38,936 bases of DNA from a virus (Duplodnaviria; Heunggongvirae; Uroviricota; Caudoviricetes). The position numbers and the translations under genes are program-made. The DNA lies in IMG/VR virus record IMGVR_UViG_3300029288_007068; one strand, written 5' to 3'. Shown here in pieces: positions 31,795 to 38,936 of the stretch. Under the pieces are notes generated by a model. That model was not told where the DNA came from and ran no database searches. It worked only from the letters and a program-made list of their open reading frames with translations. How positions within the stretch are numbered: the stretch's first letter is position 1; the number at the start of each line of letters is the position of its first letter.

Positions 31795-32787
31795 TTAAGT
31801 CCACTCGTTATCTGCTGAATCTAAGAAGATTGTAATGTTTTGCTTTGGTTTTGGTTCTTCCTTTAAATCAGCTCCAGCGTAACAAAATTCACTTTCTTTC
31901 TCTTTTACTTTTTTAACTTCTTTTTTCTTTTCTTTAAACTCTGGTTTAGTATTGATGCAATCTAAATGTGCTTTTATGTTATTCGCAAATATGGGGTCAA
32001 GAGGTTTATTTTTATTTCTAAAAAATTCTACATTCCATATTTCATCAAACTTACAAAGCTCTTCCATGAGTCGATAACTTTTTAAATCTACTTGTTCGAT
32101 TGACCTAAAAGCGGTTACCAAAAGTAAATAAGTAAAATCCTCTTTTAACTCCCTCTGTACAAAGAGCTTTAAATTATATGATAAATAATTCATGGGCGAA
32201 ATTTTCTCAATAGGACGCCCTATCAAAAGCCCTTGTAAGGCTGTTCTAACTGAGTTGCTATTATATGCAATCTCATGGATACAATCACATGGAATATTCT
32301 TTTCCTGTAAAATCATTTCAATATCAGAAGTCATAGGTTTTCGAATCTTAACATTTAAACCATTTTTCATAAACTCCTTATCTACATCATCGAGTTTATC
32401 AAAAATATAAATAATGGGATAATTAGAAGTTTTCCATAAGGTATACAATATAGGTCTAATTCTATTCTTTCTGTCTCTGATATCTTGTGCATCATCAAAT
32501 AAAACTATCTTACCACGATTACTATTTATTGATTGGAGATTAATAGACTTCTCCAAATCATTAACATCATCAAAATCGTCAGCTGTAAACCTTAGCAAAT
32601 CAACATCATACGCTTTCGCAAGACATTCCACAAGGAAAGTTTTTCCATTACCACTGGTTCCATGAATGATAGCATATGGTGGACTTCCAGCGCCATTAGT
32701 AAAAAAGTTATCGAGCCACTCATCCAACTGAGCTATCTGCTCTGGAGTCTTTCCATTTCTATTCTTGTAAATACTTGGGAGCGTCAT
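31795..32787 (-). CDS. AAA+ ATPase resembling replication factor C large subunit (clamp loader-like)
   Basis: IIHGTSGNGKTFLVECLAK (Walker A), IVLFDDAQ (Walker B), YPIIYI; acidic/basic C-terminal tail as in RFC-L. Confidence 0.7.
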   Translation of the reverse strand: MTLPSIYKNRNGKTPEQIAQLDEWLDNFFTNGAGSPPYAIIHGTSGNGKTFLVECLAKAYDVDLLRFTADDFDDVNDLEKSINLQSINSNRGKIVLFDDAQDIRDRKNRIRPILYTLWKTSNYPIIYIFDKLDDVDKEFMKNGLNVKIRKPMTSDIEMILQEKNIPCDCIHEIAYNSNSVRTALQGLLIGRPIEKISPMNYLSYNLKLFVQRELKEDFTYLLLVTAFRSIEQVDLKSYRLMEELCKFDEIWNVEFFRNKNKPLDPIFANNIKAHLDCINTKPEFKEKKKEVKKVKEKESEFCYAGADLKEEPKPKQNITIFLDSADNEWT

Positions 32788-32974
32788 CTAATACCCTTTC
32801 TCTTTTTTCTAATTCTTCAATAACCTTTTTAACAATTAAATCCACTTCTTCACTCCTTTTTTTAAGGAAGGTTTTTCCGGCAAAATGAACGCCCAACGTA
32901 ATTCCAATACCAGTAAAAAAAGCATTTACTACTAAAGTTAATCCTATAACTAAATATCCTTGAAAATCTATCAT
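32759..32974 (-). CDS. Small membrane protein (71 aa)
   Basis: One long hydrophobic segment followed by a charged helix; GGAG RBS. Confidence 0.7.
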   Translation of the reverse strand: MIDFQGYLVIGLTLVVNAFFTGIGITLGVHFAGKTFLKKRSEEVDLIVKKVIEELEKRERVLDDAPKYLQE

Positions 32975-33003
32975 TCTCGAAACTCCAATTACAACTTTTT
33001 AAA

Positions 33004-33347
33004 TAGCGTATTTTAGGTTAAAATATAATAGACTATCCTATAAGATGTTATACTATCCTAAATTATCCAAGGTTGTGAGTAGATTGGATGGTGGTCAGTA
33101 ATTGTTTGCACAACTACGATAACCCCACAGCTGTTTGACCAACTATAAGGCTTTTTATACGAGTTACGTCAGTTTATGCTATATTATGTCATTACAGCAT
33201 ATGCTATGCTATATTGTCCCAAATTATTTGAGAAGATAACATATTATTCGATATCCCCACCACTGTTTGACGAGTAGTGGAGCTGGATATCCTGTATTAT
33301 AACATTCTATAATATTACGTACTATGCTGTGTTGGGTTAGTTTATAG
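33004..33347 (-). ncRNA. Putative guide-like RNA array: three degenerate pentamer tracts with interspersed hairpins (VIPR-like)
   Basis: In-phase 5-nt units at 33004-33068 (13), 33165-33254 (18) and 33288-33347 (12). Plus-strand consensus is YAT-NN. A 23-nt element occurs twice (33117-33139, 33249-33271; 20/23 identical). Hairpins need G-U pairs, which works only on the minus strand. No ORF in the region. Confidence 0.7.
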
Positions 33348-33606
33348 AATGCAAATCCGAATCAAATACTACTTTTACTTCTCCTTGTTTTGTTATCAAC
33401 ACTAACTGGTAATGAATACCAACCTTTACAAGAACATTTCTCATACAGAGTTGATTATCTCCTAAATCTTGACCCTCCAACTTATACTCTACACAATGTA
33501 GTCGACCAGATGGCTCTATTCGCCATCGGTCTGGGTATCCATTCTTTTCCAACTGAATACCCAAACTGGCGAAATACTCATCAGCTATATCTTCACTTTC
33601 GGTCAT
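33337..33606 (-). CDS. Hypothetical protein (89 aa) between Cas7-like gene and repeat array
   Basis: ATGA-coupled to the upstream gene; its stop lies inside the first pentamer tract. Confidence 0.7.
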   Translation of the reverse strand: MTESEDIADEYFASLGIQLEKNGYPDRWRIEPSGRLHCVEYKLEGQDLGDNQLCMRNVLVKVGIHYQLVLITKQGEVKVVFDSDLHSIN

Positions 33607-34262
33607 GTATAACTTGATTTATCAATGATTATCTTTGTCATTCTTCGATTTAGAGTCTTCACCGTTGGTAACAACTGAACTATAGACTTAATCTGTCCTT
33701 CATATATCTCAGGATACTTAATAACTATAGTTGTTTTAATCTCTTTAACCGCATCATAATGCTTTCCTATAAAACCACCTCCAATTCCCTTTAGTGGTTG
33801 AGGGGATGTAGCAAAATAATAATTTCCATTATCACGCCAGTTCTTGTCTTCGCTTAAAATAATATATTCTGGTTCAACGTTAACCATTTGAATCATTCTA
33901 TCAACCGTTGATTTATATGGAAATAACGGGTGTTGAATATCCGCAAGATTTTTACCAATAGCTTTTATGGTTCCTCTAACCTTTCTTCCAAGAGGTAAAA
34001 TAGGTCTACCTTTTTCATCAACTTCAAATGTCGCAACGGGAACATTATCTTTTACCGTAACTATCTTATTCGTAAGTCTAACTGGTGGTTCTATTCCTGG
34101 CATCGTACTTTTAGTAATTGTTTGTTTTTCGGCCTTATTTATGGTTTGATGTTCTATCTCTTGGAACCTCTCAACACCATCTCCACCAAAAACATCTTTA
34201 AGAGTTACATTTAAAGTAACTGTTTTCATAGATATTGTTGGTATATCTTTTTCTTGTGTCAT
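33603..34262 (-). CDS. Divergent Cas7/RAMP-like viral protein (219 aa), candidate RNA-guided effector
   Basis: RRM-like layout: VTLNVTLKDVFGG; long insertion; TFEVDEKGRPILPLGRKVRGTIKAIGKNL; VNVEPEYIIL; beta-hairpin PQPLKGIGGGFIGKHYDAV; KTTIVIKY. This matches, from memory, the motif order of phage Cas7-like proteins. The canonical C-terminal G-rich loop is absent. Confidence 0.6.
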   Translation of the reverse strand: MTQEKDIPTISMKTVTLNVTLKDVFGGDGVERFQEIEHQTINKAEKQTITKSTMPGIEPPVRLTNKIVTVKDNVPVATFEVDEKGRPILPLGRKVRGTIKAIGKNLADIQHPLFPYKSTVDRMIQMVNVEPEYIILSEDKNWRDNGNYYFATSPQPLKGIGGGFIGKHYDAVKEIKTTIVIKYPEIYEGQIKSIVQLLPTVKTLNRRMTKIIIDKSSYT

Positions 34263-34348
34263 ATTATTTCATCTCCATAATACTATATGGTATTGGAGTA
34301 TATAAATTTTTTTATATGTTTAATAGTTACTATACTCTTGGAAGTTAA

Positions 34349-34834
34349 TCATAGTTTTTCCTTTAAAGAATTTTGATTTTGATAAGTGCCACTTCTTTGA
34401 GCATATAACCTTGAAGGAGTAGAATCCAACTGGTCAAATACTATTTGACATATCGTTCTCTTGCCATACTTTGGAATCACTATATCATCATCTGAAGAGT
34501 TATACATACTAAGAGCCAAATTCCCGCAATATCCAGCATCTACTACACTCGCCATAAGGATTAACCCTTTTCTGCCGTATGAGCTTCTTATCCAAAGAAA
34601 ACCCACAACATCTGCTGGCATCTCTACTCTCTCTTCAGTCATCCCAACAACAAATGTTTTCGCAGGAATAACTACATCAGCTTCATTGATGTTCTCAACT
34701 TCATCCTTTATTTTAATTTCTTTGATAGTCAAATCGTACCCATTGGGTGTTACTTGTTTCAATTCAAATGGTATGACTAAAGGTCTTCCAAAATGGTCTG
34801 CTCTTTTTATTATCTCTCTATCTACTAAAATCAT
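34349..34834 (-). CDS. dcd: dCTP deaminase / trimeric dUTPase superfamily protein
   Basis: QVTPNGYDL, IRSSYGRKG, VVDAGYCGNL, RTICQIVF, Y..RSGTYQNQ motifs. Confidence 0.9.
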   Translation of the reverse strand: MILVDREIIKRADHFGRPLVIPFELKQVTPNGYDLTIKEIKIKDEVENINEADVVIPAKTFVVGMTEERVEMPADVVGFLWIRSSYGRKGLILMASVVDAGYCGNLALSMYNSSDDDIVIPKYGKRTICQIVFDQLDSTPSRLYAQRSGTYQNQNSLKEKL

Positions 34835-38326: not shown

Positions 38327-38331
38327 ATCAA
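38062..38331 (-). CDS. Overlapping alternative-frame membrane ORF (89 aa, TTG start) ending in SHIVID
   Basis: Open for its whole length in a second frame over the previous gene; two hydrophobic segments; H-x-x-x-D motif. Confidence 0.4.
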   Translation of the reverse strand: MIWDILNRFFGTPKYYYDDYSLEYIIRCECTHFVISLLTGSLGYFVMSTILSRKCYQWGDRSIFLCSFLFGLCLSITSHIVIDAFTTLA

Positions 38332-38936
38332 TTAATTCCCTCTTCTTTTGCTCTTTTTATTAACGTTGGTAGTGATACTTTAATTTCTTTTGATATCTTG
38401 TTAAAACTATATCCGTGTGAACGTCTATCTTTTACTATCTCCATATCAATGACTTTCTTTGGTCTATTCATTGGTTTTCCAGACTTTGTACCATGCGTTT
38501 TTGCCCATTCTTTACCAGCTTGCATCCTTTCTACAATAATATCTCGTTCAAACTCAGCAACATCAGATAATACATGGAACATAAACCTTCCCTGTGAATT
38601 TGATAAATCAATATTCTCCTTAACCGATAAAAAACGTTTACCGACGTCTTTAATTTTATCCAAATTATGTTTTATATCGTCAGTACTTCTTCCAAATCTA
38701 AAAACAGAATAAAACATAATTCCCTTAACTTCTTGGTCTTCTATAACTCGCTTAAGGGCTTTTTCAAACTCTGGTCTAAACTTAATACCAGATACCCCCT
38801 CGTCAGCGTAAACTTTAATTAATTCAATATCGTTCATAGCTGCCAGTTTCATTAACGCATCCTTTTGAAAGTCAAGACTGTTGCCTTGGATTTGAGTAAC
38901 AGTTGATACTCTGATATAACCAATAAATTTATCCAT
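38328..38936 (-). CDS. Small serine recombinase (resolvase/invertase family) with C-terminal HTH
   Basis: GYIRVST (catalytic Ser), ADEGVSG, RPEF, RFGRS, FERDIIVERMQAG, GRP-like NRP, C-terminal HTH. The ATG is the last three bases of the window. Confidence 0.92.
   Translation of the reverse strand: MDKFIGYIRVSTVTQIQGNSLDFQKDALMKLAAMNDIELIKVYADEGVSGIKFRPEFEKALKRVIEDQEVKGIMFYSVFRFGRSTDDIKHNLDKIKDVGKRFLSVKENIDLSNSQGRFMFHVLSDVAEFERDIIVERMQAGKEWAKTHGTKSGKPMNRPKKVIDMEIVKDRRSHGYSFNKISKEIKVSLPTLIKRAKEEGIN

Follow-up and report, generated by a model that had tools for sequence, protein, structure and literature searches.

The locus studied here raises the question of whether a short non-coding spacer of a viral genome, organized in pentamers, encodes guide RNAs. 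The spacer (32975-33336, 362 nt), which contains no open reading frame, lies in the 38,936-nt stretch of DNA that was analyzed (hereafter the window, part of a 141-kb contig), between an 89-aa ORF (33337-33606, minus strand) and a 71-aa ORF (32759-32974, minus strand). An earlier note, made from the DNA letters alone, had described it as an array of VIPR-type guides, and the literature to which it referred does exist, with the content that it described (10.64898/2026.04.26.720920, 10.64898/2026.04.26.720927). VIPR systems (for Viral Interference Programmable Repeat) were described only in 2026, and their mechanism is known for GGY-type RNAs alone. According to the two reports, they consist of a minimal stand-alone RAMP protein (Vipr) and usually one accessory gene (vap), and occur mostly in phages and proviruses. 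Their RNAs (vrRNAs) consist of 9-16 YNNGG units and end in a conserved 3′ tail, and one Vipr protomer binds each unit, sequestering GGY and leaving NN exposed. Double-stranded DNA is recognized by reading two bases and skipping one, the natural targets being located in competing mobile elements. The repeat criterion given there is at least four pentamers with the motif GGY or the related NNNGG, YNNNG or NNNNG (10.64898/2026.04.26.720920, 10.64898/2026.04.26.720927).

Reading the spacer in pentamers resolved three tracts in three different phases, which comprised 9, 18 and 14 units after re-registering (41 in total). The unit is Y-A-T-N-N on the plus strand and N-N-A-U-R on the minus strand. 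On the latter, position 4, the center of the constant part, is a T in 37 of the 41 units and a pyrimidine in all of them. Position 3 is an A in 30/41, and position 5 an A in 29/41 and a purine in 36/41. Positions 1 and 2 stay near background, with 11 different dinucleotides among the 41 units. The constant trinucleotide ATA is complete in 20/41 units, giving a consensus A-U-A devoid of G. These counts agree closely with those of the earlier note (43 units in three tracts, with a purine in 43/43 at the corresponding plus-strand position) and bear out both its AUR motif on the transcript strand and its two freely varying positions.

Table 1. Position of the features of the locus in the window
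Feature	Position	Strand	Description
vipr-like gene	33603..34262	-	219-aa stand-alone minimal Cas7-type RAMP (P0001), assigned by fold
vap-like accessory gene	33337..33606	-	predicted 89-aa VRR-NUC / PD-(D/E)xK nuclease; start overlaps vipr stop (ATGA)
vr_a repeat tract	33288..33332	-	9 units NN-AYR; NN = AC GC GT TA TT GA TT AT GG
Tail hairpin a	33254..33283	-	10-bp stem, loop CGUCAAAC; covariance model R1 45 bits, E 8e-10
vr_b repeat tract	33165..33254	-	18 units NN-AUR
Tail hairpin b	33122..33151	-	11-bp stem, 5 G·U pairs, loop GGUCAAAC; R1 47.4 bits, E 1.7e-10
Small hairpin after tail b	33098..33117	-	7-bp stem, UGCAAA loop; MFE and centroid fold of the minus-strand RNA
vr_c repeat tract	33004..33073	-	14 units; no GUCAAA hairpin after it
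Near-cognate vr_c site	32883..32914	-	in the 71-aa membrane-protein gene (32759-32974); 19/22

To quantify the periodicity, the 38.9-kb window was scanned in full, at periods 3-7, with a statistic that scores in-phase runs of a single base. At period 5, the top two runs of the window were both found in the spacer (33005-33070 and 33166-33251, with a score of 14 each), the next best reaching 8. When the 362-nt spacer was shuffled 5000 times with its dinucleotides preserved, a score of 14 was never attained (mean 5.7, maximum 13). Tandem Repeats Finder reported nothing in the spacer, and Rfam at gathering threshold found no family anywhere in the window. The period-5 check proposed in the earlier note was thus positive for in-register runs, whereas the spacer did not stand out in Fourier power at this period (computed for all bases, for single bases and for R/W classes, in segments of 45-80 nt), because A/T also prevails at its variable positions. 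The tracts with their 5-base period are confirmed, and they represent a fixed-register signal and not a simple microsatellite, as had been claimed. A chance periodicity of an AT-rich spacer beside an unrelated RAMP-fold protein could appeal to the Fourier result and to scans for sigma-70 promoters and intrinsic terminators, which remained at shuffle level. It is refuted by the run scores, by the shuffles and by the recurrence of the same type of tract beside every informative homologue (see below), and we consider it extremely unlikely.

The protein encoded next to the 89-aa ORF, 219 aa in length, could not be assigned by sequence. Together with its 35-member family, it had no match in Pfam, PHROGs or PDB sequence searches; an exact-protein look-up of P0001 gave no match, IMG/VR contained no protein relatives, and tblastn against GenBank phages found none. 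An exhaustive HMMER search retrieved 32 relatives of about 200 aa. The AlphaFold2 model computed with the 35-sequence alignment (A2) reached a pLDDT of 89.3 and replaced an earlier one obtained from 5 sequences (pLDDT 57). Its core is a ferredoxin-like RRM; strand 1 is followed by a long beta-hairpin, corresponding to a thumb, and a conserved L-G-x-K-x-x-G motif precedes a helix; in the family alignment, GGDG after strand 1 is invariant. A Foldseek search of this model against the PDB returned only Csm3/Cas7 chains. Of the five accessions on which Vipr was founded, three were retrieved from the AFDB clusters in the midst of CRISPR type III RAMPs, namely A0A1F4YLN4 (rank 2), X1U2U4 (rank 6) and A0A661D0E2 (rank 23). 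X1U2U4 is the PSI-BLAST query from which the published set of 2,664 Vipr proteins was collected (10.64898/2026.04.26.720920, 10.64898/2026.04.26.720927). In BFVD, the top match was a siphovirus protein of 194 aa labelled ‘Cas system-associated RAMP superfamily protein’. The predicted structure supports the assignment of the 219-aa protein as a minimal Cas7-like RAMP, Vipr-like by fold, in line with the Cas7/RAMP-like neighbor postulated beforehand.

In the VIPR reports, the constant motif is read by a loop rich in glycine that connects helix 2 to the last strand, GGY being recognized as syn guanines by this G-loop together with thumb residues (10.64898/2026.04.26.720920, 10.64898/2026.04.26.720927). 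The window protein has a loop at the G-loop position (residues 201-208), but this loop is glycine-free and carries TLNRRM, the family consensus being L-N-K/R-R with an invariant N205. A constant motif without G counts against a VIPR reading, since the published GGY recognition cannot apply as such when the motif contains no G, and the glycine-free loop may do so too. A further point against it is that no sequence-level link connects the protein to known Vipr/Cas7 proteins, Pfam RAMPs or PDB chains.

Orthologs of the 89-aa protein adjoin a vipr-like gene in nine loci (alignment A5). Residues E5, G23, P25, D26, E40, K42 and Q52 are invariant in these nine sequences, and the elements E5, P25-D26, E40-x-K42 and Q52 constitute the VRR-NUC PD-(D/E)xK signature. 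The Pfam VRR_NUC family (PF08774) matched five of the nine orthologs (best E 7e-8), the window copy falling below threshold, and the family profile showed a weak match to the VRR-NUC domain of FAN1. As judged from these residues and from the overlap with the RAMP gene, the protein is a predicted VRR-NUC nuclease with an intact catalytic signature, probably coupled to the RAMP gene in translation. In two related loci, the codon at the position of the window's ATG start is ATA (L001:1618-1620 and L003:1246-1248), and therefore gene callers annotated only a 53-aa C-terminal piece. The full-length frame is open in both, with all catalytic residues kept. Either the start codon has been lost in these loci, or the ATA serves as a non-canonical start that is coupled to the stop upstream of it.

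The tracts are accompanied by hairpins with a (G)UCAAA loop, of which ten copies from six loci could be aligned (A4). In the 11-bp stem, 96.3% of the cells pair, compared with 35-50% when the partner strand is slid, and 10 of the 11 pairs show changes on both sides. The covariation score was equalled by none of 500 shuffles. On the gene strand, roughly one in four of the paired cells is G·U, which becomes A·C on the opposite strand. Searching the 39 kb with the covariance model gave exactly two copies, both on the minus strand (33111-33162 and 33243-33294). Folding of the spacer RNA was likewise asymmetric, with a z-score of -4.17 for the minus strand, where none of 100 shuffles was as stable, versus -0.21 for the plus strand. 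The covariation with G·U pairs and this asymmetry point to the minus (gene) strand as the transcript strand. In the window, the order is tract, hairpin, tract, hairpin (with a small second hairpin, which is not conserved in the other aligned loci) and tract. The same layout is found in L009, whereas L001 displays tract-hairpin-tract, L003 tract-hairpin, and L007 hairpins on either side of all three tracts. From these layouts, the hairpins punctuate the array. By analogy with vrRNAs, a function as 3′ tails is the simplest reading, marks of processing or termination being equally possible.

The third tract, vr_c, reaches the region in which the promoter of the next gene probably lies. There, a TATA-like box TATTTAAA (minus strand, about 33005-32998) was considered as the driver of a leaderless 71-aa gene and rejected, given the GGAG located 9 nt upstream of the ATG of this gene. 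We therefore make no claim on promoter type or host domain.

To examine whether the association is recurrent, contigs were taken for eight relatives of the RAMP gene, and gene and tracts were compared over L001-L012 where the flank suffices. Period-5 tracts adjoin the RAMP gene, on the gene strand, in every locus with enough flank (nine independent metagenome loci, among them L001/L002, L003, L004-6, L007, L008, L009/L010, L011 and L012), which strengthens the reading of the window tracts as a VIPR-type array. Every related tract has three informative positions and two adjacent uninformative ones. The constant motif is C-A-A in L012, Y-Y-A in L007, L008 and L011, C-Y-A in L009, and A-U-A in L001, L003 and the window. 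The base immediately 5′ of NN is an A in all loci, and the NN positions are hypervariable both between tracts and between loci. The neighboring genes differ widely, including GTP cyclohydrolase I, a TGT-like gene, radical SAM, methyltransferase and UDG.

Two tracts of this comparison differ in size or position. In L012 (998-1267), 54 CAA/NN pentamers form an unbroken run of 270 nt, after which come a GC hairpin and a T-run. This length is far above the 9-16 units of described vrRNAs, and the tract may correspond to a staggered or multi-guide transcript. In L011 (2862-2976), a 23-unit YYA/NN tract without hairpin lies upstream of the RAMP gene and reaches the Shine-Dalgarno sequence, so that the position of the array is variable in the clade.

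In the window, the neighbors are a dCTP deaminase, PolB, an AAA ATPase and small ORFs. The AAA protein (330 aa, 31795-32787, minus strand), downstream of the 71-aa gene, matched the PHROG ‘clamp loader of DNA polymerase’ (3.5e-13) and iSTAND/AAA in Pfam. With PolB, dCTP deaminase, AAA and a resolvase (38328-38936), this end of the window forms a replication module. No CRISPR repeat array and no other cas genes were found in the 38.9-kb window. In the Atlas, the nearest RAMP clusters are mostly in viruses labelled Uroviricota, and the nearest PolB clusters are mostly so labelled too, with some archaeal ones among them; the assignment to an archaeal spindle-shaped virus made in the earlier note was not supported. 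A landfill metagenome appears to be the source of the DNA. On the contig of P0038, an ortholog of the 71-aa protein, the small membrane gene comes immediately after PolB and is itself followed by the AAA ATPase. In the window, the interval 32975-34834 places the dCTP-deaminase gene and the whole VIPR module between PolB and the small membrane gene. Given the direct adjacency in the relative, the dCTP-deaminase/VIPR block looks inserted upstream of the near-cognate site described below.

This context could suggest that the tracts act as DNA, as a replication origin, iterons or a bent or AT-rich protein-binding region. The spacer is AT-rich and located inside a replication module, with its PolB, clamp-loader-like ATPase and dCTP deaminase, and it is a junction region, since the module-free relative has PolB directly followed by the small membrane gene. 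However, a 5-bp period differs from the helical repeat, and the tracts travel with the RAMP gene and not with PolB, in contexts that include queuosine-type genes and methyltransferases. The preservation of the RAMP-array linkage while the motif drifts argues against a DNA-level role tied to local replication genes. The G·U covariation of the hairpins, specific to one strand, and the strand-asymmetric fold are also at odds with such a role, as is the fact that a single, specific gap rule brings the variable dinucleotides into agreement with other genes. We regard a DNA role as very unlikely.

This rule was tested by concatenating the NN bases with 0-3 skipped bases between units and scanning both strands of the window. 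In vr_c, the first 11 units (33019-33073) form the core that matches targets. With one skipped base, this core matched 19 of 22 positions at 32914-32883 on the minus strand, the next best site in the window reaching 15. At skips of 0 and 2, no site exceeded 15; at a skip of 3, the array itself scored 22/22 and any other site at most 16. Shuffling the order of the units of the core gave at least 19 in 2 of 2000 cases (p about 0.001). The site lies in the 71-aa gene directly downstream of the array and is read in frame, the skipped base being the wobble position, and its codons (T-G-I-G-I-T-L-G-V-H-F) belong to a transmembrane segment. The target peptide is kept in the orthologs of the 71-aa gene (P0038-P0040). 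Against the orthologous copies in L017 and L018, vr_c scored 22/28 and 21/28 with its 14 units, and 19/22 and 18/22 with the 11-unit core, respectively. All known orthologs of the 71-aa gene have the same two mismatched units with respect to vr_c.

We then scanned IMG/VR for exact gapped patterns, with few controls. Units 2-11 of vr_c had a single match (L014:44-72), which unit 1 also fits, giving 22/22 (L014:41-72). This site, also in frame with wobble skips, lies in a small membrane-protein gene on a tailed-phage contig encoding terminase and portal proteins. With one skipped base, vr_a matched 18/18 at L015:3179-3204 and L016:2585-2610, which are one homologous site covering the last codons and the 3′ flank of a major head protein gene. 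The contigs L014-L016 are otherwise unrelated to the element in the window, tblastn recovering only the 14-aa target stretch. Controls with reversed order and the same composition had no match in IMG/VR, and the 22-base vr_c pattern had none in 596 Gb of prokaryote genomes. As controls were few and only exact patterns were scanned, the database matches are suggestive, and the in-window result for vr_c is the stronger statistic. Both support the 1-nt-skip reading for an AUA-type array. The gapped search recommended in the earlier note was successful for vr_c and vr_a, with matches above chance, but not for vr_b: exact gapped scans of IMG/VR with three of its 10-unit sub-patterns were negative. 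Within the window, neither vr_a nor vr_b had a match above shuffled controls.

These matches also bear on another explanation, an RNA-RAMP complex devoid of programmable DNA targeting. Such a complex could be a structural or regulatory RNP, a decoy or sponge directed against a host type III CRISPR system, or a means for vr_c to autoregulate the 71-aa gene. Autoregulation would account for the best in-genome match of vr_c being its own neighboring gene (86% of the core), with the same two mismatched units in all known orthologs; the absence of any match for vr_b and the binding of crRNA by Csm3-like folds in type III systems agree with a non-targeting complex more generally. Against it, the NN positions are hypervariable between tracts and loci, as for guides with many targets, and vr_a and vr_c have perfect gapped matches in unrelated phage contigs where controls have none. 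In addition, a conserved nuclease predicted to retain its catalytic residues would fit target destruction better than autoregulation. A non-targeting complex is unlikely in our view, though less so than a DNA role of the tracts.

We consider it very likely that the locus 32975-34262, on the minus strand, is a divergent VIPR system composed of a RAMP protein, a VRR-NUC nuclease and a three-guide array. Besides the G-free motif and the lack of sequence similarity, several points speak against this reading: vr_b lacks a match, the third tract lacks a hairpin and reaches the probable promoter of the next gene, and a system coupled to a nuclease would be expected to avoid a near-cognate site in the genome that carries it.

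We infer transcription, RNP formation, DNA binding, repression or cleavage, and a biological role. In the VIPR system proposed here, the operon would give a minus-strand transcript, and the hairpins would mark where the array is cut or terminated. Each RAMP protomer would grip the constant A-U-A of one unit, in which the central U is the most conserved base, leaving NN exposed. By analogy with characterized VIPRs, the RAMP filament could read double-stranded DNA with two bases read and one skipped. The candidate targets are genes of competing viruses, on the one hand one for a major head protein and on the other a family of small membrane-protein genes, and the VRR-NUC protein may cut the bound target. 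As for vr_c, it would be aimed at a transmembrane-coding segment, of which the virus's own copy differs at two codons. A more specific proposal is tentative, and we would rather doubt it than rely on it: the locus may represent a virus-borne, nuclease-coupled VIPR subtype with a G-free AUA motif, in a clade whose motif switched repeatedly (CAA, YYA, AUA) while the 2-read/1-skip rule was kept, and the two codon changes (Ile for Val, His for Leu) that would separate self from a targeted competitor might form a built-in self/non-self rule for inter-virus exclusion.

Compared with the VIPRs of Escherichia phage SUSP1 and of a Pseudomonas fulva prophage (type II), the locus has the same composition, with a minimal RAMP and a small accessory gene in a two-gene operon on a virus-like element. 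It likewise has intergenic pentamers with 3 constant and 2 variable bases, here 9-18 units followed by a structured tail, and several vrRNAs downstream of the genes. The gapped 1-nt-skip matches with wobble skips, located in genes of other viruses, are a further similarity. There are also differences. First, the motif is AUA (AYR) and not GGY, and no sequence similarity is detectable. Secondly, the tail is a simple GUCAAA-loop hairpin, whereas that of SUSP1 is a pseudoknot. Thirdly, the accessory gene is a predicted VRR-NUC on a virus-like element, while the predicted nucleases in the VIPR survey are stated to belong to host-encoded antiviral types (10.64898/2026.04.26.720920, 10.64898/2026.04.26.720927). 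Finally, a site nearly cognate to one of the guides is found in the genome of the virus itself. The fold, the non-CRISPR context, the repeats, the tail (after two of the three tracts), the accessory gene and the skip rule are all found here, and GGY is not. As these classes are set out in the available text, the locus is outside canonical VIPR and inside the class with a ‘non-canonical repeat unit’.

This class has precedents. The accessible part of another report describes non-canonical VIPR-like arrays, detected by entropy periodicity, with the motifs GAC/NN, CAC/NN, WGT/NN and TGH/NN beside a Vipr-like fold, from which it follows that the constant motif can change (10.64898/2026.10.21.760802). 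These arrays share with ours the period of 5, a fixed non-GGY trinucleotide and an adjacent Vipr-like fold. As far as the accessible text goes, the motifs named there all contain G or C, with units repeated 10 times, unlike the AUA motif and the 9, 18 and 14 units of the window, whose clade moreover shifts between CAA, YYA and AUA; an overlap of the wider clade with the 21 clusters of that report is possible (10.64898/2026.10.21.760802). As non-GGY motifs are already on record, the system of the window is no new category. Its new features are an AUA motif free of G, a series of motifs inside a single clade, a predicted VRR-NUC on a virus-like element and the near-cognate site in a neighboring gene.

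Other RNA-guided systems are more distant. Type III CRISPR-Cas (Csm3/Cmr4) shares only the Cas7-like fold: its Cas7 backbone has a period of 6 nt and a contiguous spacer, and works in multi-subunit Cas10 complexes with CRISPR arrays, whereas Cas10, Csm/Cmr subunits and a CRISPR array (repeats of about 30-37 nt) were all absent from the window. TIGR-Tas systems resemble the locus in having a non-CRISPR, array-encoded guide RNA with a short periodicity on mobile elements, but the accessible text gives them a period of 18 nt and Nop-domain Tas proteins, with neither a RAMP nor a pentamer code (10.64898/2026.10.21.760802).

A clade in which CAA, CCA/CUA and AUA are associated with one minimal RAMP fold offers a natural series for the choice of bases by the protomer. 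It raises the question of whether the constant motif can be re-engineered, for example into orthogonal VIPR tools used in parallel. Judging from the gapped matches, the 2-read/1-skip geometry may be independent of the identity of the constant motif, which is a testable statement on the architecture of the filament. The predicted VRR-NUC on a virus-like element suggests cutting of the target over repression in inter-virus conflict, and the near-cognate site in its own gene provides a concrete case for mismatch tolerance and self-avoidance.

Two minor observations concern a further protein and two of the related loci. In P0017, a protein of 2428 aa, five separate stretches match RAMP residues 116-155. 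Either a RAMP sub-motif may have been built into a repeat protein here, or the match may be a chance effect of low complexity. Close relatives of the VIPR module are present in L001 and L002, where the flanks encode GTP cyclohydrolase I, a radical-SAM protein (QueE-like) and a TGT-like protein, a set typical of viral 7-deazaguanine DNA modification.
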